Counted from the stretch's first letter, positions 12,826 to 33,101 are shown. The stretch: DNA of 46,787 nucleotides from an uncultured Candidatus Saccharibacteria bacterium (GCA_964444555.1 CAYUHC010000004.1:1-46787), one strand, 5' to 3'. The notes: a model not told the origin generated them from the sequence alone. Translations and numbers: made by a program.

Positions 12826-13584
12826 ATGCAAGCAAAAAAGTCTCTGGGGCAAAATTGGCTCCGATCAGAAAGTGCCCGGCACGCCATCATCCAAGCGGCC
12901 GAGCTTAAAGCGAGGGATAAGGTGTTAGAAATTGGCCCCGGCGAAGGTTTTTTAACCGAAGCCCTGCTGGCCAGCGGCGCCAACGTCATGGCGATTGAGA
13001 AGGACGATCGACTCATTGGCCTACTTTCTACCAAATTTTCCTCCTTTCTCGCGTCGGGCCAACTCGAATTAATCCACGGCGACGCGCTAAATCAACCGCC
13101 GCCAGCCGATCAGTATAAAATCGTGGCCAATATCCCTTATTACCTAACCGGGGAGCTGTTGCGCCACTTCCTAACCCACTCCCACCAGCCAATTCAAATG
13201 GTCTTAATGGTCCAAAAAGAGGTGGCTGACCGGATTATTGCCCGAGATGGCAAAGAATCCTTGCTCTCAATCTCGGTGAAAGCTTATGGCGAGCCAGTTT
13301 ACGTCAAAACCGTGCCGCGCGGAGCCTTTTCGCCCGTACCCAACGTTGATTCGGCTATCCTTAACATCAAAAACATCTCTCGAGCTCGTCTAAACAAGGC
13401 AGAGGAGGCTCGTTTTTGGGAAATTCTCCATTTAGGCTTCGCTCATAAACGTAAGTTAGTCTTAAAAAACCTTGATTGTTCGACAGCCATCGCCGAGCTC
13501 TGTACAATTAGCCCCAAGGCGCGAGCAGAAAATCTAACTCTTAAACAATGGCTATGTCTAACGAATCAACCGAAACTCCAGTAA
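12826..13584 (+). CDS. rsmA: 16S rRNA (adenine1518/1519-N6)-dimethyltransferase
   Basis: KSLGQNWL, the SAM motif LEIGPGEGFLTEAL and NIPYY are present. The track ORF starts at 12778 inside the helicase gene. The ATG at 12826 (MQAKKSLGQNW) follows the helicase stop. Confidence 0.9.
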   Translation: MQAKKSLGQNWLRSESARHAIIQAAELKARDKVLEIGPGEGFLTEALLASGANVMAIEKDDRLIGLLSTKFSSFLASGQLELIHGDALNQPPPADQYKIVANIPYYLTGELLRHFLTHSHQPIQMVLMVQKEVADRIIARDGKESLLSISVKAYGEPVYVKTVPRGAFSPVPNVDSAILNIKNISRARLNKAEEARFWEILHLGFAHKRKLVLKNLDCSTAIAELCTISPKARAENLTLKQWLCLTNQPKLQ

Positions 13585-14135
13585 AATTACCCGGTTCAGG
13601 CTGGTTTATGGCCATTATTGGCCTCGCTTTGGTCGTTTTGGGGCTAGCGCACTCACTGGCTGGCAGTGCCAATCCGTCTCTGGCCAACGGGCCAAGAAGC
13701 ACCGCAAACCCGTCCATCACTGACGAAAATGCCACTTTACCGCTCAGCAAGGCCACCACTTCCAAAATCAAAATCAACAACTTAACCCTGGACGTCTTTT
13801 TGGCCACTGATCCGGTGGCTCAAGCCCGAGGCTTATCTGGCCGACCCGCTCTTGGCCCCCTCGAAGGCATGCTCTTTATTTTCAACCGCGACACCGAACC
13901 AAACTTCTGGATGAAGGACATGAACTTCGCCATCGACATTATTTGGATTAATCAAGCTGGCCAAGTAATCGCCATCGAACCCAATCTTACGCCCGACACT
14001 TACCCAAATTATTTTGCTCCGCCAGAACCAATTCGCTACGTCTTGGAAGTAAACGCCGGCTTTGCCGATACTCATCAAATTACGCTGGGCAATTTTATCC
14101 ACTTTCTTGAGCCAGAAGTCGTGAACACTCGGTGA
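13548..14135 (+). CDS. DUF192 domain protein with N-terminal membrane anchor
   Basis: ARGLSGRPALGPLEGMLFIF...FWMKDMNFAIDIIWIN is the DUF192 signature. The TM helix is WFMAIIGLALVVLGLA. Confidence 0.8.
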   Translation: MAMSNESTETPVKLPGSGWFMAIIGLALVVLGLAHSLAGSANPSLANGPRSTANPSITDENATLPLSKATTSKIKINNLTLDVFLATDPVAQARGLSGRPALGPLEGMLFIFNRDTEPNFWMKDMNFAIDIIWINQAGQVIAIEPNLTPDTYPNYFAPPEPIRYVLEVNAGFADTHQITLGNFIHFLEPEVVNTR

Positions 14136-14158
14136 AAAACAAGTTATAATAAACTTGG

Positions 14159-15013
14159 GTGAAGAGAAAAATATTTATTTTCGCGCTCGTCGCGATTCTT
14201 GTTGTAGGTGGCGGAGTAATTTTCTTGTGGACTTTAGGAAATAAAACACTCCAAGATCAAGAGCTCGCGGCTCAAGGTTTTAAAAAAATTGATCAACCAG
14301 ATTCAGACGGGGATGGTCTGGCTGACTGGGAGGAAGAGTTATGGGAGACGGATCCACAAAAATCCGACACGGACGGCGACGGCACTAGCGATGGGGAAGA
14401 AATTAAAGCCCGTCGCGACCCGCGACGGGCTGGACCAAATGACCAACTTAAAACTAGCAACGAACAGCTAGAAGCATTAGTCCATTCCGCGATCGAAAAG
14501 AAGCAGGCACCGATCGTCATTGCCCCGCCAGAAATGGTGGCCGCTCGCCAAGCCATCCCCAGCGCCGCCATTACCATCGCTCAAGTTAGCCCCGAGAGCT
14601 ATGGCCAAAATCTGACCGTGGCTTTAAAACCTTACCTCCTCACTCACCAGTCTAATATGGCGCGAGAGCTCACCAGCTTTCTCACCAACAACCAAACGAG
14701 CCACTTAACAACGATCAATCTGGCTAACAACGGGATCGCCACGTCTTTAAAAGCTCTGCCAAGTGTTTCGGTACCAGCAGAAATTGCCTCGAGCCACCGC
14801 GCCTTCGTCGAGCACTTAGTAAAAGTGGGAGAACTCTTGGGCTACATGAGCAAAGCGGCCACTGAACCGATTGTAGCTGTCCAAGCAGGGCAAGTTTACC
14901 AATACGAGTACGCCCAAGTGATAAAATTTTTATTAGAAATTAACGCCTTCTTAATCAAGAACAACGTTAAGCTGGATGCTTCGAGCACGCCACCCATTTT
15001 GATTAATTATTAA
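14159..15013 (+). CDS. Membrane-anchored protein with thrombospondin-type-3-like Ca-binding repeats
   Basis: The start is GTG and the TM helix is IFIFALVAILVVGGGVIFLW. Then come DSDGDGLADWEEELWETDPQKSDTDGDGTSDGEE (DxDxDG repeats). The C-terminal domain is unknown. This is the first gene of the 14159-26730 same-strand cluster. Confidence 0.6.
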   Translation: MKRKIFIFALVAILVVGGGVIFLWTLGNKTLQDQELAAQGFKKIDQPDSDGDGLADWEEELWETDPQKSDTDGDGTSDGEEIKARRDPRRAGPNDQLKTSNEQLEALVHSAIEKKQAPIVIAPPEMVAARQAIPSAAITIAQVSPESYGQNLTVALKPYLLTHQSNMARELTSFLTNNQTSHLTTINLANNGIATSLKALPSVSVPAEIASSHRAFVEHLVKVGELLGYMSKAATEPIVAVQAGQVYQYEYAQVIKFLLEINAFLIKNNVKLDASSTPPILINY

Positions 15014-15015
15014 AC

Positions 15016-18000
15016 ATGAAATCATTCACTTGGTACTCTCTAAGTTTAGTTCTAGCTCTAGTTAGTTTGGGTGGCGTCACAAAAGCCCAACAGGTCCTGT
15101 GTGTTGGCCCCAGTTGCGGACAAACTGTCTCGCAAAGTTTGGGCGCGCCAAGAAGCTCGGTTCCTAGCGGACAAACCATTATGGTTCGCCAGCGCAACGC
15201 CGATGGCCAACAATGCCAAGCCGAATCTGGTGGTGTTGGCGGTTTTATCGAACAAGCCATGAGCTTGCAGGGTATCCTGGGTTCCGGATTACAACAAACA
15301 CTTGGTTCCACGGTGCAAAATCTTTTCTCAAACAAAATTCCCGGGATCATCCAAGACCAAATCACCAATCGTCTCCCGTCCCTGATCGAGAGAGGAGTGC
15401 GTGACCAATTGCCTGGCAGAATCTCCCAACAAGTAAGCGGGATGCAACGCCGAGGCATGAGCGAAAGCGCGATCAAAGCCGCTTTACCCCAAATCGTTTC
15501 TCAACTTCTCCAACAACTCATCTCTGAGTTAGTAAAAAGCCAAACTCCGGTGGCCATTGAGGAGGGTCTACGCCGCGAATTGCCCGCCGACCTCGTCGCC
15601 GAATTTAACGCCAAGGTCCCAGAAATTTTAGAAACCGGCGGATTTAATGAACAAATAAACGATCTAGTCTCGAGCACCACGGCCGAACTTGGCAACCTGC
15701 GCTCAAGAATTAGCTCGCGAGATCGGGAAGAATACGCCGAACAATTATCCGAAGAACTGGCGACTCAAGTTCAACAAGGCATCAACACTTCCAGTGGGAT
15801 TAGCGACCTCGCCAATAGTTTAACTATCGCCTTTAGTGACGTGCTAATGCCGCAGATCGAACAGATTCTCGCCCCGCAACTCAATCAAATATTCTCCGGC
15901 GGAGGCAATAGCGGCTTTGGTGGATCAGTCGACACCACCGTCAGTGGCTTATTCGGCAATAACTTTTCGCTCTCCGGCGGTATCTCGGGCGATGTAATCA
16001 ATCCGATTGTCACTTCAATCAGTCCATCCATCGGCCAATTTGGTTGGTCGGCCGGCAATAGTATTGCCGGCGCTTTCGGCAATGGACAAATGTCTCCCGG
16101 TAAACTCCAAGCCATTGGCCAGGGGAGCGGCACTCAATCAGCGGAATTTCGTTCCAGTTTAGGTGGCGACGTCGACACCTCCCAACTCGATGCCGACATG
16201 GGTAAAGTCAGTCAAAGCGGCGCCTCGCAAGCCTCCAGCGGTTCGTCTCAAGCGGCGCAAAATGCCGCTACTAAAACTGGCGCCCTTGATGGGCTGAACA
16301 CTAGCATTAGTCAAGGATTTGTAAGTGGTGTCTCTGGCGGACTGGGCGGATTAGTCGGCGGGGTACCTTATGTAGGCGGCATCCTCTCACCAATTGTCCA
16401 AAATTACACCGAAGGGTTTTTAAGCGGTCTTCTTGGGCTCCAACCCGGACTTGGCTGGCCCGTCACCGACGTAGGAACCCAGCAAACTGTTTCTGGCGGC
16501 TTTCAAGAAAGCAACAAGATTCAAGGTAAAATCCAAGAGGCCTCTGATCAAACAAAAGAAAACACTTCTAAAGAGGTTACGCTCCAAACTCAAATGTGCA
16601 CTCTAGAAAAACAGCTCAAGGGGGTCGCTTACCGTACCGAAGAAAAAGAATTCGTTCTTGATCCAGCGGCTCGCAAAGCTGCCTTTCTAGCCTTCCAAGA
16701 ACTTTACAACGCTTACCGCGATTACTTTACGCGCGGCTACAACCCAGGCGACAGCGAAGTGGCGAGTGGAGACGGTAGCACCGGTCAAAGCGGCGAATCA
16801 TTTGTTGCCGACTACAATCTCGACCAAGAACGCGCCGCCGAAGAAGCGCGCGCCGACGTTGTTAGCAAACTACAAAATAGCGAAAATCCTTACGCCAGCG
16901 ACGTCGTTGAACAAATTATCGCGACCCAAAATCAATTTTACGGCCAACCGCTAGCCGAAGAGGAGTGCGCCAAACTAGCCCCAGACTCTGGAGCCAAATT
17001 AACTGGGGAAGAATACAACGAACTACTATTTAGTTGTTCTAATCCGATCAATTATCCTCGGGGCGTCCTCACGCTAACGCAAGACGCCATGAGCCAAGCC
17101 GCTAATCAGGCCGAACAAGAAGCCCGCGATCGCTATCTGGCCAATCAAGGAGTGCGCGACACCCGAGTTTGTGCTGAGTGGTCAGACAATCCACTGGAAG
17201 CCGGCAATCTTAGCGACTCGCTTACCAACAGTGGGGCAGGTGACATCTTAAGCGGCACACCCCTGGGAACCGGCGGTCGCTATTGTAAGCGCTGGGTGAC
17301 CACCACTCCGGGCTCAAGCAACAAATCCTACATGGATCGTTTGTTGACGGCCTTTGTGGACTTTATGGTCAACACTCACGAAGTAGGGGAAGACTTTATT
17401 AACGGCTATCAACTGCAACCACAAAAAGATCTCACTAATCTGGCTCAGAAAAATGATCCGATTCCGCAAACCAATGATCCCTGCCCCGACACGGGTGGCT
17501 GTCCAAACACCGGCTGGTCGTACAATCAAGTAGATACCTCGGCTCTAAATCAGGCGGCCCAAAATGGTGTGGAATCTCTCTTCTATAATCTAATCAACGG
17601 CGGTGGAGATGACGACTCGCCAAGCGGTGGTGGCTCCTTTAATCTGGGCGGCTTACCAAACTTTAACTTACCAGCCATCGACTTTAGCGCCTTGTTCCAA
17701 AATCAAGTCGCCACTCAGCCCGCAATCGCCGCACCATCAATTAGCATCCAACAATCAACGGTTGACGTGCCGCCCGCGAGCAAAAAATCTACCGTCTCTT
17801 GGACAACCGGCAACGCGAGCGTCTGCTTTACGGCCAGTGATTGGCTAAGCGGCACCTGGCCCGGGAACATCAGCACCACTACCGCCGGTGACATCCTGGA
17901 AACAACGGGGGAGTTAAGCATCGATTATCCAGCGGGCACGAAAGTCAACTTAGTCTACGCCATTAATTGTTATAATTCTCAGGGAGTAAGCAACGAAACC

Positions 18001-18024
18001 GAGGTTAACATCACGAATGAATAA
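15016..18024 (+). CDS. Large secreted protein of unknown function (1002 aa)
   Basis: The signal peptide MKSFTWYSLSLVLALVSLGGVTKAQQ is followed by G/S/Q-rich low-complexity segments. A central helical region and scattered Cys residues follow. The C-terminal segment looks beta-rich and Ig-like (STVSWTTGNASVCFTASDW...NLVYAINCYN). It overlaps the next gene by 8 nt. Confidence 0.7.
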   Translation: MKSFTWYSLSLVLALVSLGGVTKAQQVLCVGPSCGQTVSQSLGAPRSSVPSGQTIMVRQRNADGQQCQAESGGVGGFIEQAMSLQGILGSGLQQTLGSTVQNLFSNKIPGIIQDQITNRLPSLIERGVRDQLPGRISQQVSGMQRRGMSESAIKAALPQIVSQLLQQLISELVKSQTPVAIEEGLRRELPADLVAEFNAKVPEILETGGFNEQINDLVSSTTAELGNLRSRISSRDREEYAEQLSEELATQVQQGINTSSGISDLANSLTIAFSDVLMPQIEQILAPQLNQIFSGGGNSGFGGSVDTTVSGLFGNNFSLSGGISGDVINPIVTSISPSIGQFGWSAGNSIAGAFGNGQMSPGKLQAIGQGSGTQSAEFRSSLGGDVDTSQLDADMGKVSQSGASQASSGSSQAAQNAATKTGALDGLNTSISQGFVSGVSGGLGGLVGGVPYVGGILSPIVQNYTEGFLSGLLGLQPGLGWPVTDVGTQQTVSGGFQESNKIQGKIQEASDQTKENTSKEVTLQTQMCTLEKQLKGVAYRTEEKEFVLDPAARKAAFLAFQELYNAYRDYFTRGYNPGDSEVASGDGSTGQSGESFVADYNLDQERAAEEARADVVSKLQNSENPYASDVVEQIIATQNQFYGQPLAEEECAKLAPDSGAKLTGEEYNELLFSCSNPINYPRGVLTLTQDAMSQAANQAEQEARDRYLANQGVRDTRVCAEWSDNPLEAGNLSDSLTNSGAGDILSGTPLGTGGRYCKRWVTTTPGSSNKSYMDRLLTAFVDFMVNTHEVGEDFINGYQLQPQKDLTNLAQKNDPIPQTNDPCPDTGGCPNTGWSYNQVDTSALNQAAQNGVESLFYNLINGGGDDDSPSGGGSFNLGGLPNFNLPAIDFSALFQNQVATQPAIAAPSISIQQSTVDVPPASKKSTVSWTTGNASVCFTASDWLSGTWPGNISTTTAGDILETTGELSIDYPAGTKVNLVYAINCYNSQGVSNETEVNITNE

Positions 18025-20434
18025 ATGGTTTAAAAATTTACTGCTGATCTCACTCGTCCTGCTTGGTGCGGGGTGGGGTAACAAAGCGTGGGCCCAGAAT
18101 GCTTCAGGTATGTCTGGGGCTGTAAACGCAGCGGCTCAACAAAATCCTAAAAATCAACCAAAAGCCCTCCAGGTCAGCCAGCAAATTGCGGCTCTAGACA
18201 AAAAACTTGCCCTAGATCCAACCAATCAAACCTTACTCGACCAAAGAAAGTTTATGCTCCTAGAGTACGGTTGTTACTCGATGGGCGTTTGCAATGATGC
18301 TGTCCAAGGAGGAGAGTGGATTCCGATGTTTGTCACCGGTGGAGAATTAGACACCTGGAACTACGCTCGACTCATGGCCATGGTCAGACACCTGTCACAG
18401 CAAAAAGATCCAATCAATTACTACGACGATGTACGTAATGCCATTACAAGTCAGCACCAAGCTTTATTAGCATCTTTAGATCAAGACCCAAATCTAAAAG
18501 CCAAAGCCGAGCAACGGGCCGCGGCATTACTAGGCAACGACGTTCGTGTCGAAAACGCCGATGACCTAAAATGTAGCATCTTTGATCTGCAACTTGGCAA
18601 CTGTCTTTTGGTCTTTGTGAGGGCGGCTAATGTTTACGTCTTAGAACCTGCCAGTAGCTTGTTGGTTGGCCTCGCCAACGAAATTTTTGATCTGTCATTC
18701 AAATATTCGGTCCGAGATTTTGGCACCTACTTAAAAGCGCCCACTAACGCGCCGATCGTGGCTGGCTGGACAGTGGTCCGAGACTTCGTCAACATCGTCT
18801 TTATCTTTGCCTTGCTGTATGCCGCCCTCTCACTGATCGTCCAGATTCGGGGCTTTAATCAAGGCGTTGATGGCAAAAAACTGGTCGGCTACATCGTGGT
18901 CGGCGCTCTGCTAGTTAACTTTAGCGCCTTCTTTGTGGGTATCGTAATCAATCTGAGCAACTCCCTAGCCAACCAGATCTACTGTACCGCGGCCGATTGC
19001 AGCAAGGAGACTCCCGACCTAGCCATCAATTTAGTGCGCTTCAATAATCGAGAACTTTATAAATTACACAACGCCAATAACGGTTTCGAGGTAGCGATCA
19101 AGGGAGCATTTATCGGTTGGGGAACCGTCCTATTCAGCGTGATCACGGCAATCTCGCTACTAGTCGCCGCTTTGCTAATGATCATTCGCTTTATCCAATT
19201 AATCCTGGTGATCGTCTTCTCACCAATCTTGTTTTTGGGTTCAACCTTTGGGATCTTCAGCGGTCTAGCTAAAAAAATAAAAGATACGCTACTAAAACAA
19301 GCTATTTTCGCCCCGGCCTTCCTCTTTATGATCCTGATTATTACCAGATTCGTAAGCAATAACGGCCTATTTAATGACAACTTAACCACTCTCACCAGCG
19401 CAGCCATCTACGTCGTGATCCTCAATGGCCTGATTATCTCCAGCATGCTGTTGAGCAATTACATGGGACTTTACGGCGCCGCCACTCTCAATACCTACGG
19501 CAAAAAAATGATCGGGGGAGCCACTGTTGGCGCGGCGGGACGTTTGGGTCGCGCCACCATTGGGCGAGCGGGCAAAAATTTGACGGAAAGTGGCAGCTTG
19601 CGAGATGCGGCCAGCCAGCGAGGGGCTCGTGGCTGGATTGCTCGCCAAACGTTGCGAGCTGGTGATACAGCTTCCAAGCTAAGCTTTGACGCTCGGGCAG
19701 TTGACTCAGTTAAAAAACTTGGACTAGGCAATGCTCAAAAGGGTGGTTACGTTGGCGACATCAAGAAAAAGGCAGAGATCGCCGATAGAGACGCTAAGCT
19801 TTTGGCGGGCAAAGACAGCGCGGGGAATGAAGTAAGTGCTCGCGAAAATGAACGCGTAGAAGGAGTAAGACTTGAGGCAACCAATAATGCTCAAAAAATT
19901 AGGGAACAAGCTGAAAGCGCGAAAGCCACTGCAATCTCCAGTGCCGAGCCCCAAATTACAGCCAAGGAGGCAGAGTTAGCTCGAGAACTAGATCAGATTC
20001 GGCAAGATGCTAATTCTCAGCTAGATAGTGGTTCAAGCAATCCTGAAGACGTAAAAGCCGAAAGAGAAAATAAGGAGGCACAGGTTCGCGATCGTATCAA
20101 CGGGGAAGTTGAAAAAATTAAAAAACTTCGTGACGAAGAGATCGCCAAGGCCCAAAAAGAAATTGATCTATCAGAAGAGATCAAAACCAAAACAGATAAG
20201 ATCCAGCCTCGTAAGCGCATTCAAGAATTGGCTGACCAGTTTGACGATCAAGAAGGCAAAGAACCTCAATCATGGTATCGCTTTAACCGTTGGCGCGGCA
20301 AGGTAACGCGCACGCGCAAGGCTCAAGCCGCGGCCATCCGTAAACAAGCTAAATCACCACAAGAAAAATACAAAGAAAACCTAAATAAACTTCTCGAACA
20401 AGTCGAAAAACCACCAGAAAAACCAACTGCCTAA
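18017..20434 (+). CDS. VirB6/TrbL-like polytopic membrane protein with a long charged C-terminal tail
   Basis: A signal or TM segment is followed by an extracytoplasmic domain of about 230 aa and about 6 hydrophobic helices (residues ~250-480). The final ~300 aa are K/E/R/A/Q-rich. The assignment rests on topology and context, not on a motif match. Confidence 0.6.
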   Translation: MNKWFKNLLLISLVLLGAGWGNKAWAQNASGMSGAVNAAAQQNPKNQPKALQVSQQIAALDKKLALDPTNQTLLDQRKFMLLEYGCYSMGVCNDAVQGGEWIPMFVTGGELDTWNYARLMAMVRHLSQQKDPINYYDDVRNAITSQHQALLASLDQDPNLKAKAEQRAAALLGNDVRVENADDLKCSIFDLQLGNCLLVFVRAANVYVLEPASSLLVGLANEIFDLSFKYSVRDFGTYLKAPTNAPIVAGWTVVRDFVNIVFIFALLYAALSLIVQIRGFNQGVDGKKLVGYIVVGALLVNFSAFFVGIVINLSNSLANQIYCTAADCSKETPDLAINLVRFNNRELYKLHNANNGFEVAIKGAFIGWGTVLFSVITAISLLVAALLMIIRFIQLILVIVFSPILFLGSTFGIFSGLAKKIKDTLLKQAIFAPAFLFMILIITRFVSNNGLFNDNLTTLTSAAIYVVILNGLIISSMLLSNYMGLYGAATLNTYGKKMIGGATVGAAGRLGRATIGRAGKNLTESGSLRDAASQRGARGWIARQTLRAGDTASKLSFDARAVDSVKKLGLGNAQKGGYVGDIKKKAEIADRDAKLLAGKDSAGNEVSARENERVEGVRLEATNNAQKIREQAESAKATAISSAEPQITAKEAELARELDQIRQDANSQLDSGSSNPEDVKAERENKEAQVRDRINGEVEKIKKLRDEEIAKAQKEIDLSEEIKTKTDKIQPRKRIQELADQFDDQEGKEPQSWYRFNRWRGKVTRTRKAQAAAIRKQAKSPQEKYKENLNKLLEQVEKPPEKPTA

Positions 20435-20437
20435 TCT

Positions 20438-21217
20438 ATGACTACCAACCCCTTAATTGAGCGTCTTAACGAATTGCCAGCCGAGTGGCGAGCGGATCTT
20501 AAGAAGATCAATCTACCGGAAGTCATTAGCAAACTCGCAACGGACTACAAATTAGACGCCGAACAAACCAGCCAACTAGAAGCAGAAATCCTACTCATCG
20601 CCACCGGTCTAGAGTACCGCGAAAGTTTGCCGACCAATCTGATGGCGGCACTCCACACCGATTCGGCCAAACTAATTTCGATCAAAGAACGACTGGAGCG
20701 TGAGGTTTTTAGTCCTCTAGCCAAACATCTCGACCAAACCGAGCAGGAGATCAAACGGGCCGAGGCGGAGGAGCGGGAAAAATATAAGCACCTGCCAGCC
20801 GAACTACAAGAAGTGATTCTCGACGCCCACACCGAAGAGACCTTAGCCGCCCTAAGCGATAAGTATCAACTCCACATTGACCAAGCCGGCGTCCTTTACG
20901 ACGTCACCGATCAAGTCCTGACGGGCAAGATTAAAGCTCGAGACTTTGTGGCGGAACTAGTCCGCACCTCCTCGCTCAGCACGGAATTAGCCAATAAGCT
21001 GGCGGGGGATCTCAACCAGCAATTATTCCAACCCGTCCAAGCTACTCTCCGCGCGCTAGAAAATCAGCCCCCAACCGTCTTCGAAGCAAAGTTAAAAGGA
21101 CTCTGGAGCGGCAACCAAAATCAAAGTTCGAGCGAAATTTTGATCAAACCCCAACCCGCCACCACCGCCACCACGCCCGCCAAAGTTGCCGATCCCTACC
21201 TAGAACCCTTAGAATAA
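20438..21217 (+). CDS. Hypothetical cytoplasmic acidic protein with two internal helical repeats
   Basis: The 259-aa protein has no hydrophobic segments. It carries a repeated module, ISKLATDYKLDAEQTSQLEAEILLIATG... and LAALSDKYQLHIDQAGVLYDVTDQVLTG.... It is tightly packed within the cluster. Confidence 0.6.
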   Translation: MTTNPLIERLNELPAEWRADLKKINLPEVISKLATDYKLDAEQTSQLEAEILLIATGLEYRESLPTNLMAALHTDSAKLISIKERLEREVFSPLAKHLDQTEQEIKRAEAEEREKYKHLPAELQEVILDAHTEETLAALSDKYQLHIDQAGVLYDVTDQVLTGKIKARDFVAELVRTSSLSTELANKLAGDLNQQLFQPVQATLRALENQPPTVFEAKLKGLWSGNQNQSSSEILIKPQPATTATTPAKVADPYLEPLE

Positions 21218-21221
21218 AGTC

Positions 21222-21623
21222 ATGAACTTCCAAGTACCCCAATTTATCGAGGTCGAAGACAAAATTTTCGGCCCCTTTACCTTTAAACAATTCGTCTACT
21301 TGGCCGGTTCAGCTGGCGCCGCCTTTTTAATTTGGGTTTACATCCCGGTTCGCTTTGTTGCCTTGATTTTCGTCATTCCTGTTTTAATCTTAGGCCTCTT
21401 ATTAACCTTTTACCGAGTTAATAACCGTCCGTTTGTTTCTATTTTAGAGGCTGCGGCTCGCTATGCCTTAACTCACAAACTTTATATTTGGCAAAGATCT
21501 AGCACTCCCACCAAAACTAACGTCACCGCGCCCACTGCCTCCGGTTTAAAAATTCCCAAGCTCTCTGATAGCAAACTAAAAGACCTCTCCTGGAGTCTAG
21601 ATGTGAAAGAAAAAATCCAGTAA
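21222..21623 (+). CDS. PrgI-family (VirB3-like) small membrane protein
   Basis: The N-terminus VPQFIEVEDKIFGPFTFKQFVYLAG is followed by two TM helices, the pattern of PrgI-family T4SS proteins of monoderm bacteria. It lies immediately upstream of the VirB4-like genes. Confidence 0.7.
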   Translation: MNFQVPQFIEVEDKIFGPFTFKQFVYLAGSAGAAFLIWVYIPVRFVALIFVIPVLILGLLLTFYRVNNRPFVSILEAAARYALTHKLYIWQRSSTPTKTNVTAPTASGLKIPKLSDSKLKDLSWSLDVKEKIQ

Positions 21624-21643
21624 CAATGGTACACTAATAGGCA

Positions 21644-22291
21644 ATGGCCGCTGACACTAAAGCCAAAGCTTCACAAGAATTTATTCCGATTAAAGAAATT
21701 CGGGATGGGGTAGTAATCCTCAAAGATGGGGGAATGCGTTTAGGTTTGATCGTTTCGTCGATTAACTTTGCGCTCAAGTCCGCCGACGAACAAACAGCGA
21801 TCTTGCTCCAGTTCCAAAACTTTCTTAACTCGCTGGATTTCGACATCCAACTCTTTGTGGAATCACGCAAACTAGATATCGCGCCCTACCTCACCATGCT
21901 AGAGGAAAGATTGGTGGCTCAAACTAACGATTTAATGAAGGTCCAAACTCGAGAGTACATCGAATTTATCAAAAAATTTACCGAAACCACCGACATTATG
22001 TCGAAGAGTTTTTTCGTTATCGTCCCTTTCAATCCTTCGATTATTAGTGGCGCCAAATCGCAAAGTCTGATTGGCCGCTTCTGGCCCGGGAGCCAGCAAT
22101 CGCCGAGCGTCGAGCAAGACCAGCTTAATAATTTTGAAGAAAATCGCACTCAATTAGAACAACGAGCGGCCGTCGTCGCCGGCGGCCTGGGGGCCGCCGG
22201 CCTCCGAGTCTCTCAACTCGGCACCGAAGAATTGGTCGAGTTATACTTTAAGATGTTTAACCCAGGGGAGCGCGAAATCCCTTCGATCTAA
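21644..22291 (+). CDS. Hypothetical protein resembling the N-terminal module of VirB4/TrsE-type ATPases
   Basis: FIPIKEIRDGVVILKDGGMRLGLIVSSINFALKSADEQTAILLQFQNFLNSLDFDIQLFV parallels the start of the next gene (LRDVIAPSALKV...RTFYVISYP...FDISIHIHPID). No P-loop is present. Confidence 0.55.
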   Translation: MAADTKAKASQEFIPIKEIRDGVVILKDGGMRLGLIVSSINFALKSADEQTAILLQFQNFLNSLDFDIQLFVESRKLDIAPYLTMLEERLVAQTNDLMKVQTREYIEFIKKFTETTDIMSKSFFVIVPFNPSIISGAKSQSLIGRFWPGSQQSPSVEQDQLNNFEENRTQLEQRAAVVAGGLGAAGLRVSQLGTEELVELYFKMFNPGEREIPSI

Positions 22292-22295
22292 ATTT

Positions 22296-24131
22296 ATGTC
22301 TTTATTTAATTTTGGCAAAAAAACTGAGGCCACGCCCACGCTCACTCCCATCCTGCCTCAAGATATTTACCAACTGGGAGTCTTGCAGCTGCGCGACGTC
22401 ATCGCTCCATCGGCACTTAAGGTGACGCCTAAGATGCTCCATCTTGGCGATCGATTGGCACGCACTTTTTACGTTATTTCTTACCCGCGATTCCTGTCTG
22501 GCGACTGGTTTTCCCCGATCATCAATCTCGACAAAATTTTTGATATTTCGATTCACATCCACCCGATCGATAGCGCCTTGGCTCTGCGCCAACTAGAAAA
22601 GAAGGTAGCCGAAGTGCAAAGTCAGATCAGCATGAAAGAGGATCGGGGATTGGTCCGTGACCCGGTGCTCGACACGGCCTACCAAGACATCGAAGATCTT
22701 CGCGATAGTCTCCAACAAGCCCGCGAAAAGATTTTCGATGTCGGAATTTATATCACGATTTATGGTGATAGCGAAGAAGATCTCGACCGAGTGGAAACCG
22801 AGGTTAAAGGGATTCTCGATGCTAAATTAGTCTACTTAAAGCCCGCTCTATTCCAACAGGCCGAGGGCTTCCGCAGTGTCTTGCCTACCGCCACCGACGA
22901 ACTAAGCGTCAATTACAAACTTAATTCTTCGCCCCTGTCGAGCGTTTTTCCCTTCGTCTCTTTTGACCTCACCTCCAACCGCGGCATTCTTTACGGCATC
23001 AATCGCCACAACTCCAGCCTCGTGCTCTTTGACCGCTTCTCGCTCGAAAACTACAATTCAGTGATCTTTGCCAAATCTGGTTCGGGCAAATCTTACGCCA
23101 CCAAATTAGAAATCTTGCGTAGCTTAATGTTTGATACCGATGTCATCGTCATTGACCCCGAGCGCGAATACGAATTCCTCTCCGAAGCGGTTGGGGGACG
23201 ATACTTCAACATCTCACTCTCTTCCGAACATCACATCAACCCATTCGATCTCCCTTTCCCGCGAGAGGATGAGTCACCGGCCGATGTTCTCCGTTCCCAC
23301 ATCATCAATCTCGTCGGACTCTTTCGCTTAATGCTCGGCGGCCTCACGCCAGAAGAAGATGCGATTATCGACCGCGCTATTACCGAAACTTACGCCCTCA
23401 AAGACATTACCGCCGACATTGACTACACCACCAAACCGGCGCCACTTCTCTCAGATTTGGAATTAGTCCTGGCGGGCATGGAGGGCGGGGAGAGCTTAGC
23501 ACAACGTCTGCTTAAATATACTCGCGGCACCTGGTCCGGCTTTATCAACAAGCCAACCAATGTCGACATCAACAAGAAATTTATTGTTTTCTCCGTCCGC
23601 GACATGGAGGATGAGTTAAAGCCGGTGGCAATGTACATCGTCATGCACAATATCTGGAACTCCATCCGACGCAATCTTAAAAAGCGCCTGTTGGTAATCG
23701 ATGAAGCGTGGTGGATGATGAAATCCAAAGACACCGCTTCTTTCCTCTTCTCGCTCGTTAAGCGAGGGCGCAAATATTATCTCGGCGTCGCGACAATTAC
23801 CCAGGACGTGGGTGACTTCTTGCGCTCGGAGTATGGCACGCCAATCATTACCAACTCCTCAATCCAGCTCTTACTCAAACAGTCGCCAGCTTCGATTGAC
23901 CTTGTCCAACAAACCTTCCAATTAACCGACGAAGAAAAATATTTACTCCTCGAGTCAGCGGTCGGGGAGGGGATCTTCTTCGCGGGCCTAAAGCACGTCG
24001 CAATCAAAATCATTTCTTCTTACACCGAAAATCAAATTATCACTTCTGATCCGTCAGAAATTTTGGCCATCCGCCAAGCCAAAAAGGACTTAGCAACTCT
24101 AAACAACAATGAAAGCGTCCCCGAAAATTAG
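22296..24131 (+). CDS. VirB4/TrsE-like type IV secretion ATPase
   Basis: Walker A is FAKSGSGKSYATK and Walker B is KRLLVIDEAWWMM. The downstream ATITQDVGDF motif is present. The N-terminal domain has the YPRFLSGDWFSPII pattern typical of VirB4 of monoderm systems. Confidence 0.85.
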   Translation: MSLFNFGKKTEATPTLTPILPQDIYQLGVLQLRDVIAPSALKVTPKMLHLGDRLARTFYVISYPRFLSGDWFSPIINLDKIFDISIHIHPIDSALALRQLEKKVAEVQSQISMKEDRGLVRDPVLDTAYQDIEDLRDSLQQAREKIFDVGIYITIYGDSEEDLDRVETEVKGILDAKLVYLKPALFQQAEGFRSVLPTATDELSVNYKLNSSPLSSVFPFVSFDLTSNRGILYGINRHNSSLVLFDRFSLENYNSVIFAKSGSGKSYATKLEILRSLMFDTDVIVIDPEREYEFLSEAVGGRYFNISLSSEHHINPFDLPFPREDESPADVLRSHIINLVGLFRLMLGGLTPEEDAIIDRAITETYALKDITADIDYTTKPAPLLSDLELVLAGMEGGESLAQRLLKYTRGTWSGFINKPTNVDINKKFIVFSVRDMEDELKPVAMYIVMHNIWNSIRRNLKKRLLVIDEAWWMMKSKDTASFLFSLVKRGRKYYLGVATITQDVGDFLRSEYGTPIITNSSIQLLLKQSPASIDLVQQTFQLTDEEKYLLLESAVGEGIFFAGLKHVAIKIISSYTENQIITSDPSEILAIRQAKKDLATLNNNESVPEN

Positions 24132-24429
24132 TGGTTTAAACGCCATTGGCTTAGTAATCGTTAGCTTATTCTTCGACATCTTAAGTTTTGTCCCACTTTT
24201 AAACATTATTACCGGCTTGATTGGTTGGTTCATTTTTTCTTTGTGGTTCTTCCTGCTCGGCTTTGGTTTACTGGAGGGGCGCCGACTCGTCACCATGATG
24301 TCTTCAATGATTATTGAGGTTGTTCCTTTCCTGAGTTGGCTACCCACAATGACTATCGGTGTTATCGCGCTCATTCTAATGGTAAACTTAAAGCGTGTCT
24401 TACCTCTCCCCAAAGTTGATTCTCGTTAG
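24109..24429 (+). CDS. Small polytopic membrane protein (106 aa)
   Basis: It has three to four hydrophobic helices and no recognisable family. It overlaps the VirB4-like stop by 23 nt. Confidence 0.55.
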   Translation: MKASPKISGLNAIGLVIVSLFFDILSFVPLLNIITGLIGWFIFSLWFFLLGFGLLEGRRLVTMMSSMIIEVVPFLSWLPTMTIGVIALILMVNLKRVLPLPKVDSR

Positions 24430-25138
24430 TCTCGCATTCCTAACCTCGAGTCTAACCGCCTACGCTCAAACCGCTCCCATTGTTGATCTAATTTGGGAAG
24501 CCGATAGTTATTTACCGGCTTTTTACCCCGGCCATAGCCGGCCAGCTCCCGGTAGCACCGTCCGCCTGGCCGCTTTGGCTCACTTTACTGATCCAGCCAC
24601 CGGCCGAAGTTTGGGGCCAGAGAGTCTCACTTACACTTGGTCTAAAAACGGCCAAACCATGGCTGGCGTCTCGGGATTAGGTAAAGATTCAATTATTTTT
24701 AGCGCTACCGAGCAAGCTATTTTTCGGGTCGCCGTAAGCTACCCGGCCAGTGGCGTAAGCGCGGCCAGCCAAGTCTCGATTAGCCCTCAGCCCGCCCTGA
24801 TTAAACTTTATTACGAAGAACCACTCTTGGGTACGGCCTACCATCAACCCGTCGCCACCACCTTTGAGATGCCCGAAGGTGAGATCAATTTGAGAGCCGA
24901 ACCGTTTTATTTTTCCAAAAACGCTTATCTCAACAAAAAAATCCAATTCCAATGGACCATCAACGGCGAAAATATTGTTTCTGACGCCGCCGATCCGGGT
25001 TTAATCACGATCGCCAAGCCAGAAACGGGGGTGGGGGAGAACGCTTTTACCGTCACGGCCAAAAATTTAGCTAACGTCTTGCAAACCGCGACTAATAAAT
25101 TCACAATTAAGTTCAACAGCAGTAATATTTCTTTTTAA
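24395..25138 (+). CDS. Secreted protein of unknown function (247 aa)
   Basis: The start is GTG and the signal peptide ends in LTAYA-QT. The composition is beta-rich. Confidence 0.6.
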   Translation: MSYLSPKLILVSLAFLTSSLTAYAQTAPIVDLIWEADSYLPAFYPGHSRPAPGSTVRLAALAHFTDPATGRSLGPESLTYTWSKNGQTMAGVSGLGKDSIIFSATEQAIFRVAVSYPASGVSAASQVSISPQPALIKLYYEEPLLGTAYHQPVATTFEMPEGEINLRAEPFYFSKNAYLNKKIQFQWTINGENIVSDAADPGLITIAKPETGVGENAFTVTAKNLANVLQTATNKFTIKFNSSNISF

Positions 25139-25140
25139 CC

Positions 25141-25503
25141 ATGAACCCTCTTTACGCCGCTCAAAATACCAAACAAGTCGTGCTTATTCCTAACGCCATC
25201 ATCCCTGGCACCGAAAATCCCCAAGACTTCACTGATTTTGTCGGTGGCCTTCTACCTCAGATCATTACCGTTTTAGTCCTGCTCACCGTTATCTCGCTCG
25301 CGTGGTGGGGGATTGGCTACTTTCTAAAAAACATCCCGGGCTTTAAGTCTTATGCCAAAACGAGAATTTGGGACATTATTTTAGGTCTAATCCTAATTTT
25401 TGGCGCCTATCTCATTTTGCAAGTGGTCAACCCCAACATCAACAACAGTAAAATCTTTGATAACTCTTTAAATCAGATCAAGAATTCGAGCCCAGCCAAG
25501 TAA
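25141..25503 (+). CDS. VirB2/TrbC-like pilin candidate (120 aa)
   Basis: It has a short N-terminal region and then two hydrophobic helices (LLPQIITVLVLLTVISLAWWGIGYF and IWDIILGLILIFGAYLILQVV). This matches the size and topology of T4SS pilins. The call is made from topology only. Confidence 0.5.
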   Translation: MNPLYAAQNTKQVVLIPNAIIPGTENPQDFTDFVGGLLPQIITVLVLLTVISLAWWGIGYFLKNIPGFKSYAKTRIWDIILGLILIFGAYLILQVVNPNINNSKIFDNSLNQIKNSSPAK

Positions 25504-25506
25504 ATC

Positions 25507-26730
25507 ATGCGGCGCCTTCTTATTATCATCCTTTTAGTAGCCATCAGCTTAGCCGGCGGCGGCTGGTGGTTGTGGCAAAGAGCCCAAACCAGTGGCGTTC
25601 TTTACGAGCCGCCAGCGGCTACCATCAACTTCCCCAAAGGCGAGGACCGCCCAGGCACCAGTCGCTCAACCAGCAGCGCCACTCTGATTCTGCCAGACCT
25701 CTCAAGTGGCCCACTCCAAACAGCCTCTAATCGACCGGTGGTCGGCGTGATGAGCTTCGGTTCGGCGTCTTCGTCCCTAGAAATCTACGCCGAAGCGGTG
25801 AGTGGTCATCTTTATCTCGCCGGTGGCGGCCGCCTCTCCAACACCACCATCGCCGGACTACGTCGGATCGTCGGGGCTAGCCAGGGCAAAAACATCAAAC
25901 TCCTTCTGACGACTCAAACAGGAACCATGCCCGAAACTTTGCTCGCCACCTTTATTCCACCCAAAGAAAACGCCAACAGCTTCGTTGATAACATCGAATC
26001 CGAAACCGCCCTCCAAACTCAAACACTATCTCGGCTAATTAGAGAACCGGTCATCAGTCCAACAGGCGATGCTTGGGCCTATCTCACCCCCAAAGGGACC
26101 AAAACTGAAGTCGTGATTAATCAATTCAGCAGTAGTAGTCCAATTTCGCTTTATTCTTCGCCGCTCGAAGAATGGATTCTCGATTGGCCAGCAACCTCGA
26201 CCATCACCCTTCAAACCAAACCCGCCAGCTTTATTTCTGGTACTTTAATTGGCCTAAATCCAAAAACTAAAGTGGCGACTCGACTAATCGGCGGGGTATC
26301 GGGTCTCTCAGCCAATCTAAGCCCCGATGGCCAAGCCATCGTCTACAGCGGCGCCGCCACTAATGGAATTTTTCTCGGACTTTACTACCCAGCCACGGAT
26401 CTATTAACCCGCGCACCTTTTATCACTCTGGCCGATAAGTGCACTTGGTCTAAAGATAGTCAAACTCTTTACTGCGCAGTCCCCAAAACCATCCCCACGG
26501 GCAATTATCCCGAAGATTGGTACCAAAGTAACGTTAATTTTAGCGATATTTTCTGGAAATTCGACCGCCGAACCAACCGAGCAGAAATTATTTACAATCC
26601 CGAATTAGCCAATCCTAGTCGGTCGCTTGATGCCGCCAATCTAGTCGTCAGCGTGGATGAAAGCAAACTCTACTTTAAAAATAAAGCTGACCAACTTCTC
26701 TGGAGTCTTAACCTTAAGACAGGATTTTAG
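25507..26730 (+). CDS. Membrane-anchored or secreted protein, possible beta-propeller (TolB-like repeats)
   Basis: The N-terminal TM is LLIIILLVAISLAGGGWWLW. Repeats of the type SPTGDAWAY and SPDGQAIVYSG resemble TolB/DPP-IV-type propeller blades. This is the last gene of the cluster and converges on yidC. Confidence 0.55.
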   Translation: MRRLLIIILLVAISLAGGGWWLWQRAQTSGVLYEPPAATINFPKGEDRPGTSRSTSSATLILPDLSSGPLQTASNRPVVGVMSFGSASSSLEIYAEAVSGHLYLAGGGRLSNTTIAGLRRIVGASQGKNIKLLLTTQTGTMPETLLATFIPPKENANSFVDNIESETALQTQTLSRLIREPVISPTGDAWAYLTPKGTKTEVVINQFSSSSPISLYSSPLEEWILDWPATSTITLQTKPASFISGTLIGLNPKTKVATRLIGGVSGLSANLSPDGQAIVYSGAATNGIFLGLYYPATDLLTRAPFITLADKCTWSKDSQTLYCAVPKTIPTGNYPEDWYQSNVNFSDIFWKFDRRTNRAEIIYNPELANPSRSLDAANLVVSVDESKLYFKNKADQLLWSLNLKTGF

Positions 26731-27436
26731 CTCGACGACGAACCCACAACTCGTGGACAATGGCAAAACAATTGCTCGTTACCCAATAGAGCACTACCGC
26801 GGCCGGAAAGCCTAACGCCACAAAAGTAATCATCACGGGGAAGATAAACCGCATTTGCATATTCATACTCCGAGCTAAGTCGGCTTTTAACGACGGCTGG
26901 TCTTGATTAGAGCTCTTGGGCAGGGGAGGAACCGCTAAACTGATTTGAAAATACTGGGAGACACCGGCCACCAACGCCAAAGGGATGCTACGAGCCGTTA
27001 GATCAAGTAGCCCCAAAAAATGAGCATTAACCCCGAGCGGCGGAGCAATAAACGCATACAACCACTGACTATTAATCGTTAAACTGTCACGAAAAACGTA
27101 AAACAAAGCAAACAGAATCGGTAATTGAATAAGCAAAGTCACAAAACCAGAAAATGGATTAACTCCGTGGGCACGATAAAGAGCCATAATCGCCTGGGCT
27201 TGAGCGGCGCTATCACTTTGATGTTTAGCTTTAAGCGCCGCAATCTCCGCCTCCAACTCCTTAAGCTTCTTCTGGGTGGTTAGCGCTCGATGTTGGAGAG
27301 GAAGTAACGCAAACTTAACTAACAAGGTTAATAAAATGATCGCCACACCTAAATCATGGCCAGGAACAATGGACGACAACCAAATCAAAAGATTGTAGAG
27401 CGGTTCAAAAAAAATCGTTCGAAAAAGAGCCCGCAT
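26714..27436 (-). CDS. yidC: YidC/Oxa1 family membrane protein insertase (short form)
   Basis: The 240-aa protein has FFEPLYNLLIWL, five TM segments and a coiled-coil loop (KKLKELEAEIAALKAK). Its conserved position is downstream of rnpA. Confidence 0.9.
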   Translation of the reverse strand: MRALFRTIFFEPLYNLLIWLSSIVPGHDLGVAIILLTLLVKFALLPLQHRALTTQKKLKELEAEIAALKAKHQSDSAAQAQAIMALYRAHGVNPFSGFVTLLIQLPILFALFYVFRDSLTINSQWLYAFIAPPLGVNAHFLGLLDLTARSIPLALVAGVSQYFQISLAVPPLPKSSNQDQPSLKADLARSMNMQMRFIFPVMITFVALGFPAAVVLYWVTSNCFAIVHELWVRRRAKILS

Positions 27437-27442
27437 AGAGAT

Positions 27443-27775
27443 TTATAGTATACCCGCTTCGCGCAGCAAAGACAGTATTGACGCCTTAAGTTCGGGATAG
27501 GAATAGTTAAGCAGGGGAGCGCCGAGGAAAAAAGCCCCTCCTTGACCTCGCTTTAAACGATAAAACTCTTGAGTAACCACGGCCCGGACCCGACGGCGAA
27601 GGCGATTACGATCAACCGCTCGACGCAGAGCTTTACGACCCACGATAAAGGCAAATCTAGGTCCAATTTGAGCATTTTGGAGAGGGTGGAGAGTTAACGA
27701 CAGCGGAAAATGGCCATATTTATGGCCATTTTTAATGACTGCGGTCAGAAAATCGCGGTCGAGAGCGTTTTTCAC
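27443..27775 (-). CDS. rnpA: Ribonuclease P protein component
   Basis: The basic RNR-type motif RRAVDRNRLRRRVRAV is present. The start is GTG. It sits in the rpmH-rnpA-yidC arrangement. Confidence 0.85.
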   Translation of the reverse strand: MKNALDRDFLTAVIKNGHKYGHFPLSLTLHPLQNAQIGPRFAFIVGRKALRRAVDRNRLRRRVRAVVTQEFYRLKRGQGGAFFLGAPLLNYSYPELKASILSLLREAGIL

Positions 27776-27778
27776 AAT

Positions 27779-27913
27779 TTAAACAGACAACCGAGCGCGA
27801 CCTTTACGTCGACGACTTTGCAAAACCTTGCGTCCGCCGGGCGTCCGACTCCGAACTAGAAAGCCGTGCGTTCGGGCGCGTTTGCGCTTTTTTGGTTGGT
27901 AGGTAACAGACAT
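27779..27913 (-). CDS. rpmH: 50S ribosomal protein L34
   Basis: This ORF is below the track cutoff and was read by hand: [44 protein letters not shown] (44 aa). That is a canonical L34 sequence. Confidence 0.9.
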
Positions 27914-28001
27914 GCGGCCATACTAGCTTATTTATCTAATTGGTTCAAGCCTAGAGCCGCCCAAGCGACTTATACTAAAGACATCCCCAGTTTCAAGTCA
28001 G

Positions 28002-28042
28002 TCATCCACAGTAATTCACAGCTTATTAACAGGTGGGGATAA
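28002..28042. promoter_or_regulatory. DnaA-box-like sites upstream of dnaA
   Basis: TCATCCACA (28002-28010), TAATTCACA (28012-28020) and TGGGGATAA (28034-28042, reverse complement TTATCCCCA) each differ from TTATCCACA by 1-2 bases. Confidence 0.4.
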
Positions 28043-28067
28043 GTTGCTTCTCCCTCCGACTAAAGCA

Positions 28068-28073
28068 TATAAT
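28068..28073 (+). promoter_or_regulatory. -10 hexamer TATAAT, 6 nt upstream of the dnaA ATG (leaderless-type promoter candidate)
   Basis: This is a perfect TATAAT. There is no purine-rich SD between it and the ATG at 28080. The same geometry recurs at many operon heads (see findings). Confidence 0.45.
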
Positions 28074-28079
28074 TGATCC

Positions 28080-29444: not shown

Positions 29445-29451
29445 TCCCCAG

Positions 29452-30697: not shown

Positions 30698-30699
30698 GC

Positions 30700-33063: not shown

Positions 33064-33101
33064 GGTGGTCAGACGCCGGCAAAGTATGATACATTCTTTT
33101 T

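Follow-up and report, generated by a model that had tools for sequence, protein, structure and literature searches.

The 46,787-nt (46.8-kb) contig CAYUHC010000004.1 of genome GCA_964444555.1, hereafter the window, carries between positions 14159 and 26730 a cluster of 11 densely packed open reading frames (ORFs), all on the plus strand, which we numbered 1–11 in that order (Table 1). An earlier reading of the sequence by eye had described this cluster as a minimal type IV secretion system (T4SS)-like core embedded in unassigned secreted proteins, and its account of the 11 ORFs, their positions, common strand and tight packing proved exact. Adjacent genes were separated by gaps of 2–20 nt or overlapped by 8, 23 or 35 nt. 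The cluster sits between ksgA and a DUF192 gene on its upstream side, with uvrD also upstream, and yidC-rnpA-rpmH-dnaA on its downstream side, the downstream part of this arrangement having been proposed before and confirmed by gene calls in the flank. The GC content of the cluster (0.45–0.52) was like that of the immediate flanks (0.42–0.54), as had also been claimed. The minimum of the cumulative GC skew of the window was at approximately 30 kb, which places the replication origin within a few kb of the cluster. Promoter-like and terminator-like sites were no commoner in the window than in shuffled sequence and we therefore do not claim operon boundaries.

Table 1. Genes of the 11-gene cluster and other features of the 46.8-kb window.
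Feature	Position	Strand	Assignment	Basis or remark
tRNA gene	3093-3178	-	86-nt class-II tRNA	
Tyrosine recombinase	3869-4774		Xer-like	9.4 kb upstream of the cluster
405-aa ORF	6221-7438			within a local GC peak
comM	7822-9381		ComM	
M23/LysM peptidase	9685-10749	-	LysM and M23 peptidase	3.4 kb upstream of the cluster
uvrD/ksgA	12778-12821			direct overlap of the two genes
Gene 1	14159-15013	+	N-terminally anchored surface protein, Ca-binding TSP3 repeats, variable helical C-terminal domain	
Gene 2	15016-18024	+	1002-aa secreted protein, most variable cluster member	signal peptide in translation
Gene 3	18017-20434	+	likely VirB6-like polytopic membrane protein, 805 aa	topology, orthologues, weak fold match
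Gene 4	20438-21217	+	acidic cytoplasmic 259-aa protein	no transmembrane helix, no signal peptide
Gene 5	21222-21623	+	PrgI (VirB3-like) membrane protein	Pfam PF12666
Gene 6	21644-22291	+	TrsD-like free-standing VirB4 N-terminal domain, 215 aa	NCBIfam, BLASTP
Gene 7	22296-24131	+	VirB4 ATPase motor domain without N-terminal domain	NCBIfam, Pfam
Gene 8	24109-24429	+	106-aa protein	three predicted transmembrane helices
Gene 9	24395-25138	+	secreted tandem Ig-like protein, 247 aa	AlphaFold2, Foldseek
Gene 10	25141-25503	+	VirB2-type T4SS pilin, 120 aa	two transmembrane helices, orthologues
Gene 11	25507-26730	+	N-terminally anchored extracellular 407-aa protein, TolB-like beta-propeller	one N-terminal transmembrane helix
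yidC	26714-27436	-		downstream flank
rnpA	27443-27775	-		downstream flank
rpmH	27779-27913	-		downstream flank, with dnaA and dnaN beyond
dnaA	28080-29444			DnaA compared with VirB4
PilB-type ATPase	38234-39928	-	type IV pilus ATPase	T2SSE and MshEN domains

The motor of the system is encoded by gene 7. Its product matched the CD1110-family model of NCBIfam with 373 bits, above the curated cut-off of 325, in an alignment to model positions 185–733 of 752, and it matched the Pfam families P-loop_TraG (4e-26), AAA_10 and DUF87, with weaker NCBIfam matches to TraC, VirB4/CagE and CedB. The Walker A (AKSGSGKS) and Walker B (LLVIDEAW) motifs were visible in the translation, and the earlier identification of a VirB4-type ATPase was thereby upheld. 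Gene 6, which ends 4 nt upstream of virB4, matched only the N-terminal parts of VirB4 models (VirB4_plasma positions 99–233, E 6.5e-9; CD1110 positions 2–118, E 2.3e-5), together with the TrsD/TraD model (E 7e-4), and it was colinear with residues 21–193 of an unsplit Clostridium perfringens VirB4 (BLASTP, E 5e-6). Its orthologue in L001, a locus of the same genus, has a precomputed TraC-like match, and a separate ORF of ~215 aa was present in 78 of 79 related loci. In this system VirB4 is therefore split, its TrsD-like N-domain being a protein separate from the motor, in keeping with the earlier description of gene 6 as VirB4-N-like. The PrgI/VirB3-like protein of gene 5, likewise anticipated, scored 39.5 bits against PF12666 (gathering score 27), had two transmembrane (TM) helices, and had orthologues with 40–66% identity in 76 of the 79 related loci.

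The polytopic protein of gene 3 was more difficult to place. It has a signal peptide, a variable helical ectodomain of ~220 aa, six TM helices at residues 247–479 and a charged coiled-coil cytoplasmic tail of ~325 aa. The protein itself had no direct Pfam match, and the TrbL/VirB6 family PF04610 was matched by 7 of 40 orthologues (best E 6e-5), all under the gathering score; one of its relatives (P0128, 37% identical) matched TrbL/VirB6 over residues 272–461, also under that score (E 0.003). An AlphaFold2 (AF2) model had a mean predicted local distance difference test (pLDDT) score of 61, and its Foldseek matches were non-significant; a TM-score >0.4 was found only for the R388 TrwI/VirB6 chains 7o3v_G (the best of the three, probability 0.91), 8rt9_F and 8rtd_L, at E ~0.5–1. 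The model was shallow and of low confidence because its alignment held only nine homologues, probably as a result of the coiled-coil tail swamping the word filter. Comparison of the gene 3 family by hhalign with the candidate VirB6 of a C. perfringens plasmid showed no similarity, and its profile gave only coiled-coil noise against PDB sequences. Gene 3 does lie upstream of PrgI-VirB4, the order found in T4SSs of the mating-pair formation class FATA (MPF-FATA). The original guess of a VirB6/TrbL-like protein is thus backed by the orthologue matches and the weak fold match, and we regard gene 3 as likely, not proven, to be VirB6-like.

The two-helix protein of gene 10 had been suggested to be VirB2-like. 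Its own matches were sub-threshold (TrbC, E 0.0045; Mbov_0395 pilin-like, E 0.011; T4SS_pilin, E 0.038) and its profile returned nothing useful against PDB sequences. Two TM helices were predicted, however, and 21 of its 26 positional orthologues matched the T4SS_pilin family PF18895 (best E 1.1e-10), in a family that keeps GG..Y...K and INP motifs. Together, the colinearity of TrsD plus VirB4 with an unsplit Firmicutes VirB4, the CD1110 and PrgI matches above cut-offs, and the orthologue-backed VirB6 and pilin assignments support the homology of the core to T4SSs.

The synteny of the cluster was examined in a scan of one genome per species. More than 567 relatives were found and the best 80, ranked by VirB4 identity, were compared; these were all Patescibacteria metagenome-assembled genomes with 73–99% identity, mostly of Paceibacteria (Kaiser-, Taylor-, Vogel-, Campbell-, Nomura- and Zambryskibacteria). 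In tblastn searches with the window proteins the gene order uvrD, ksgA, cluster, yidC (minus), rnpA (minus), dnaA, dnaN was kept in the related loci, and 55 of the 79 loci had the full set of PrgI, TrsD, VirB4, gene 9, gene 11, yidC and dnaA, many of the remaining 24 being incomplete contigs. ORF maps of these loci revealed an 11-slot architecture common to the class: an anchored ~300-aa protein, large variable secreted protein(s), a 6–8-TM protein of 650–1000 aa and a soluble ~200-aa protein in slots 1–4, followed in slots 5–11 by PrgI, TrsD, VirB4, a small 2–4-TM protein, a ~340-aa secreted protein, a pilin-like protein and an anchored ~420-aa protein. The convergent orientation of the cluster and yidC was also retained.

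VirB4 of the window was 73–87% identical to that of the 79 other species, compared with 49–69% for DnaA. It was the more conserved of the two proteins in all 57 genomes that had both (median 76% vs 58%), a comparison made within genome pairs and slightly biased by the ranking on VirB4 identity. Ratios of non-synonymous to synonymous substitution (dN/dS) relative to L001 were 0.009 for VirB4, 0.014 for PrgI, 0.045 for TrsD and 0.011 for DnaA. Judged by these values, constraint on VirB4 is unusually strong for a secretion ATPase. The recurrent site and gene order and the DnaA-like constraint indicate a resident, vertically inherited core function rather than an integrative and conjugative element (ICE).

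A conjugative element or decaying ICE that had by chance integrated beside the origin was the obvious alternative, since the core genes descend from Gram-positive conjugation genes and the window does contain a tyrosine recombinase. That recombinase is 9.4 kb from the cluster with housekeeping genes between, so that no integrase stands at the borders, which are ksgA/DUF192 and yidC. Scans of window ORFs of at least 100 aa found no relaxase, VirD4/TcpA coupling protein or VirB11, and repeat scans of the window found no flanking direct repeats, no att-like or oriT-like repeats and no notable inverted repeats. Variable presence with att sites would be expected of an ordinary ICE; instead, the same site and gene order recurred in dozens of species-level genomes, the composition equalled that of the flanks, and the core was under purifying selection as strong as that on DnaA, with no decay. 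We consider this alternative effectively refuted, and the original view of a resident envelope machine rather than a conjugative element was supported, the absences on which it drew holding within the window. The PilB-type T2SSE ATPase of the window was considered as a VirB11 and rejected, as its size and MshEN domain mark it as a pilus ATPase.

The remaining genes encode accessory and surface proteins. Gene 1 has one N-terminal TM helix and matched TSP3_bac with 30 bits (cut-off 25), as expected of the TSP3-repeat anchor protein described earlier, and TSP3 was also found in proteins at this position elsewhere (10 of 79 upstream proteins of related loci). The product of gene 2 has N-terminal helical repeats, a Gly/Ser-rich middle and a Cys-containing C-terminal part with conserved cysteines; it had no Pfam or NCBIfam family and no enzymatic domain was recognised in it. 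The family is narrow, a search of 1.84 billion representative proteins having yielded only 70 relatives; 5 of 43 relatives matched the helical family DUF445, and the gene 2 profile matched only designed helical repeat proteins in the PDB. Proteins in the first two slots of other loci bear TSP3 or, in the slot of gene 2, discoidin (F5/8 type C), surface Ig-like and in one case lysozyme domains, which fits a surface or host-binding role.

In the product of gene 4 a ~90-aa helical domain occurs twice and is followed by a Pro-rich linker and, towards the C-terminus, by a DPY-x-E motif. In an alignment of 29 positional orthologues the domain had the signature LHiDQ.G.L...N..iF.PiR, with the duplication confined to the window, L001 and L003, and DPY(R/H/L)E near the extreme C-terminus was at least 90% conserved. 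There was no Pfam or PDB match to gene 4, and a Pfam scan of all orthologues gave single weak matches only. The motif, which follows the Pro-rich linker, looks like a docking peptide, and it matched no known family or partner. The family of gene 8 (37 positional orthologues) has the common motifs FD, WF and E..IP...LP.WT; no Pfam or NCBIfam family matched gene 8, and hhalign showed no similarity between its family and a small neighbouring protein of the C. perfringens plasmid.

Structure prediction was informative for gene 9, whose profile had found nothing useful among PDB sequences. Its AF2 model was all-beta, with two Ig-like beta-sandwich domains (pLDDT 89.9, predicted TM-score 0.81), and the top Foldseek matches in the PDB were phage Hoc Ig-like (E 1e-6), sidekick Ig, SiiE BIg and FN3 domains. 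The 247-aa secreted protein that could not be assigned by eye is thus predicted to have a tandem Ig-like fold. It was detected in 74 of 79 related loci, its orthologues mostly appear to carry a third Ig-like repeat, and its database relatives were all ‘hypothetical’ Paceibacteria proteins without a Pfam domain. The earlier suggestion of a propeller-like protein was substantiated for gene 11, as the profile of 42 orthologues matched TolB (7mx5_A, E 1.3e-5) and designed ‘Cake’ propellers (E 1.7e-6), and a Pfam scan of all orthologues gave single weak DPPIV_N and PD40 matches. Gene 11 was detected in 66 of 79 related loci, with K311, C312, C323 and P326 invariant, the cysteines forming a Cys pair in the sequence.

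Comparison with L001 showed that the cluster is not uniform in its divergence. By blastn the two loci had ~87% DNA identity over 12928–14443 and 19670–34126 of the window and almost no DNA similarity over 14443–19670. This cassette covers the gene 1 C-terminus, gene 2, and the ectodomain and TM region of the VirB6-like protein, with a weak extension to ~21200. The N-terminal third of gene 1 was conserved at ~87% DNA identity, with no blastn similarity from nucleotide 14443 on, and in gene 3 divergence extended through the ectodomain and over much of the TM region, the last ~250 residues being more alike. Protein identities to L001 were 53%, 37% and 49% for genes 1, 2 and 3, respectively. Synonymous differences in the cassette were saturated (proportion of synonymous differences, pS, 0.67–0.76 vs 0.31–0.50 in the flanks), gene 4 being intermediate (pS 0.62). 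As silent sites were also far more diverged, the history of the segment is older than that of its flanks. The pattern points to allelic replacement by recombination or to long-maintained alleles, and not just to faster protein evolution.

Other pairs of related loci gave similar results. In one pair (L075/L078) DnaA was 99% and VirB4 98% identical, compared with 54% for the VirB6-like protein, and the pilin was unmatched; the pilin was also unmatched in a second pair (L039/L080). A third pair (L024/L041) had 94% identity in VirB4, 26% in slots 1–2 and 28% in the pilin, whereas a fourth (L037/L038) had uniform identity. Cassette synonymous sites were saturated between genomes with 99% identical DnaA and VirB4. 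One could tentatively go further and regard the Paceibacteria locus as a distinct architectural subtype of Patescibacteria T4SS, in which lineage-specific accessory proteins (the TolB-like propeller, the tandem Ig-like, the 3-TM and the cytoplasmic DPY-x-E protein) would be built into the machine in place of VirB8/9/10-type scaffolds. The distal module, from the C-terminus of gene 1 via gene 2 to the ectodomain and membrane domain of VirB6, would then be a cassette for host recognition that diverged long ago and recombines. We hold this to be somewhat doubtful; if it is true, cassette swapping, and not point mutation, would set the host range of these episymbionts.

Judged by its sequence, the cluster is the chromosomal T4SS of Patescibacteria in its Paceibacteria form: derived from MPF-FATA, vertically inherited, located beside the replication origin and relaxase-less. 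By analogy with the known roles of the homologous parts, we infer that VirB4, with its N-domain encoded apart as TrsD, would dock on PrgI/VirB3 and the VirB6-like protein to form a membrane platform. As in other T4SSs, VirB4 would then pull the VirB2-type pilin out of the membrane for polymerisation into a pilus or tube crossing the wall. Candidates for a wall-spanning scaffold, a job done elsewhere by VirB8/9/10-type parts, are the anchored TolB-like propeller, the small 3-TM protein and the tandem Ig-like protein. The Sec-exported, fast-changing products of genes 1 and 2, together with the VirB6 ectodomain, may form the distal, host-contacting part and so set host specificity. The machine most likely serves an episymbiont in exploiting a host cell by direct contact. 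We put the probability of this whole explanation, that is, identity, mechanism and purpose, at roughly 0.7.

Several points weigh against that explanation. No VirB8-like (NTF2-fold), VirB1-like or hydrolase domain was found in the 11 cluster genes, and the lack of a VirB8-like or VirB1-like protein leaves assembly through the wall unexplained. The VirB6 assignment draws on sub-threshold matches and a low-confidence model (pLDDT 61, Foldseek E ~0.5), the window’s own pilin falls under Pfam gathering thresholds, and scaffold roles for genes 8, 9 and 11 are suggested only by location, topology and fold. The sequence gives no hint of a direction of transport. The absence of a coupling protein applies to the 46.8-kb contig only, and essentiality is established for Southlakia epibionticum (Saccharibacteria) only. 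With regard to the wall, the original prediction of no VirB1-type lytic enzyme inside the cluster was correct, and an M23/LysM peptidase is encoded on the minus strand 3.4 kb upstream. VirB1-like proteins of Patescibacteria often bear M23 and LysM domains (PMC12102498), and this peptidase could be the missing wall-opening enzyme.

The lack of directional information also affects a different proposal, in which the machine would import host nucleic acids or other macromolecules, as do archaeal Ced and Helicobacter ComB, and so feed an organism unable to make nucleotides. The absence of a relaxase and type IV coupling protein (T4CP) from the window is compatible with import, VirB4 partly matched CedB, an ATPase of DNA import (E 2.2e-9), comM and a PilB-type ATPase are also encoded close to the origin, and a 2026 preprint on a cultivated relative describes tubes that are possibly T4SS pili and the acquisition of host RNA (10.64898/2026.06.21.733656). 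However, the CedB match was limited to the P-loop region and scored 36.5 bits against 373 for CD1110, and no ComB- or Ced-specific components were detected in the window. In addition, deletion of comEC in S. epibionticum ended competence and left viability unaffected (FEMS review, PMC12857230), which indicates that the essentiality of the T4SS there does not operate via ComEC-dependent DNA uptake. We therefore think import an unlikely purpose.

A translocator injecting effector proteins into the host, via a distant coupling protein or independently of a T4CP like Bordetella Ptl and Brucella VirB, seems to us just as improbable. VirD4 homologues occur in most Patescibacteria genomes, usually far from virB4, and protein-secreting T4SSs without a T4CP are known (PMC12102498). 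The former observation also qualifies the original description of the cluster as being without a coupling protein, which is shown for the 46.8-kb contig only. Gene 4, as a conserved cytoplasmic protein with a near-invariant C-terminal DPY-x-E, could be an adaptor or a substrate, although this role is speculation. The distant T4CP homologue of S. epibionticum is non-essential, in contrast to its T4SS genes (PMC12102498), and neither effector-like genes nor toxin/immunity pairs were recognised by family scans of the cluster and its neighbours.

Patescibacteria account for much of bacterial diversity, and most of them cannot be cultured. In the sole species tested by transposon sequencing (Tn-seq) their T4SS was essential for epibiotic growth. 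The locus brings no new principle; it serves as a clean example from Paceibacteria and yields a defined set of partner proteins that are conserved but unnamed. It also gives evidence that the outward-facing part, including the VirB6-like protein, is exchanged or kept as very old alleles and that the motor is frozen, a difference that points to genes worth testing for host specificity.

Several further observations concern the neighbourhood. Left of the origin (5098–26730), the T4SS operon and most genes are on the plus strand in a region of negative GC skew, and are therefore on the lagging strand, head-on to replication. ComM and the PilB-type type IV pilus ATPase flank the origin region, one per side, so that several envelope and DNA-uptake functions cluster around oriC. 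The uvrD and ksgA genes overlap directly in the window; in the same-genus genome GCA_964651115.1 (L082, 169–4425) eight additional small genes separate them, one of which encodes a NUDIX protein and another a short protein that matched the Pfam family Asparaginase. A local GC peak at 6000–7500 (0.59 vs ~0.50) covers a 405-aa ORF that is overlapped by ORFs on both strands and that had no family match. Families identified among the large ORFs of the window were CCA-adding enzyme, Xer-like tyrosine recombinase, NYN, ComM, M23/LysM peptidase, UvrD, KsgA, PBP1, class-I Trp/Tyr-type synthetase, RuvB, PilB-type ATPase and PolA.

A separate observation was the tRNA gene near the start of the window. 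It has a class-II body of the tRNA-Leu type (Leu-like D-arm, 16-nt variable arm, A73) and an anticodon loop CUCCAAA with the anticodon CCA (Trp), equivalent to tRNA-Leu(CAA) with A35C. A metagenome scan found at least 10 further such tRNAs of 83–91 nt; nine read CCA and one has a four-base CCAA, and nine of these ten have A73, with T73 in L129. Their stems differ yet stay complementary, and the gene is therefore real and recurrent. UGG made up 0.96% of codons and the Trp of DnaA was conserved, which suggests that UGG is still read as Trp.

The locus is not an unnoticed system; it corresponds to the published Patescibacteria T4SS (PMC10633639, PMC12102498), which a 2025 FEMS review treats as an established newcomer (PMC12857230). 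The Bordetella Ptl and Brucella VirB systems share the lack of a coupling protein in the cluster and the possible display or export of Sec-dependent proteins; they are, by contrast, Gram-negative MPF-T systems with VirB7-11, and the sequence affinity is limited to VirB4, VirB3, VirB6 and VirB2. The MPF-FATA systems (CTn2/CD1110, the pGO1/pIP501 Trs/Tra systems with TrsD, and pCF10 Prg/Pcf) have in common with the window a CD1110-type VirB4 with PrgI upstream, a separate TrsD in the pGO1 subclass, and no VirB7/9/10 outer-membrane parts. An MPF-FATA reference plasmid had the same VirB6-PrgI-VirB4 order, plus MobC, a relaxase, VirD4, an SLT hydrolase and a topoisomerase, none of which is in the window. 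The VirB4 N-domain is fused in the CD1110 type and split off here, and the Gram-positive MPF-FATA systems are without VirB2 pilins whereas the window has one. The system of the window works like an MPF-FATA derivative of different composition, with a pilin present and no VirB1- or VirB8-like protein found in its 11 genes.

The nearest likeness is to the Patescibacteria clade of T4SSs. Quinonero-Coronel et al. (2025, Microb Genom, PMC12102498) found VirB4 in 2,417 of 3,035 Patescibacteria genomes as a clade nested within MPF-FATA, with TrsD, PrgI/VirB3, VirB6 and VirB2-like pilins nearby and almost no relaxases, and in Paceibacteria and Microgenomatia specifically with dnaA, dnaN, rnpA, ksgA and rpmH near the T4SS. 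The window agrees in its MPF-FATA-affine VirB4 (best model CD1110; 80 nearest relatives all Patescibacteria), in the adjacent TrsD, PrgI and pilin, with a likely VirB6-like protein nearby, and in the relaxase-less site in the dnaA region beside the origin. No feature of the window speaks against its membership; it has a single pilin gene, not an array, and that report leaves the other neighbouring genes unnamed.

In S. epibionticum, the T4SS SEML1_0006-0019 was essential for epibiotic growth by Tn-seq, and was described as Gram-positive conjugative-like, with pilins in an essential array and without a coupling protein or relaxase that could be recognised (Wang et al. 2023, Cell, PMC10633639). 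Like the cluster of the window, that locus is origin-proximal and encodes VirB4, a TrsD-like protein, PrgI, large VirB6-like proteins with helical cytoplasmic tails, VirB2-type pilins and, alongside, an exported Ig-like (PEGA) protein. It has six pilin genes, two VirB6-like proteins of ~1000 aa, a 1113-aa protein and a lysozyme/peptidase downstream of VirB4, compared with one pilin, one VirB6-like protein and no hydrolase inside the cluster of the window, which in turn has the TolB-like propeller, the 3-TM protein, the DPY-x-E protein and the TSP3 anchor protein. In Paceibacterales enrichments, T4SS pilins, Ig-like and galactose-binding-fold proteins were among the most highly expressed unknown genes (PMC10936435). 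The earlier reading by eye therefore re-derived a published system from raw sequence, and the kind of system is not new. The terms ‘TolB’, ‘propeller’, ‘Ig-like’ and ‘hypervariable’ do not occur in the main text of PMC12102498, which likewise lacks the 3-TM and DPY-x-E partners and the divergent gene 1–VirB6 segment, and the additions made here to the description of that system are the Ig-like assignment of gene 9, the TolB-like assignment of gene 11, the DPY-x-E motif of gene 4 and the diverged segment from gene 1 to VirB6.

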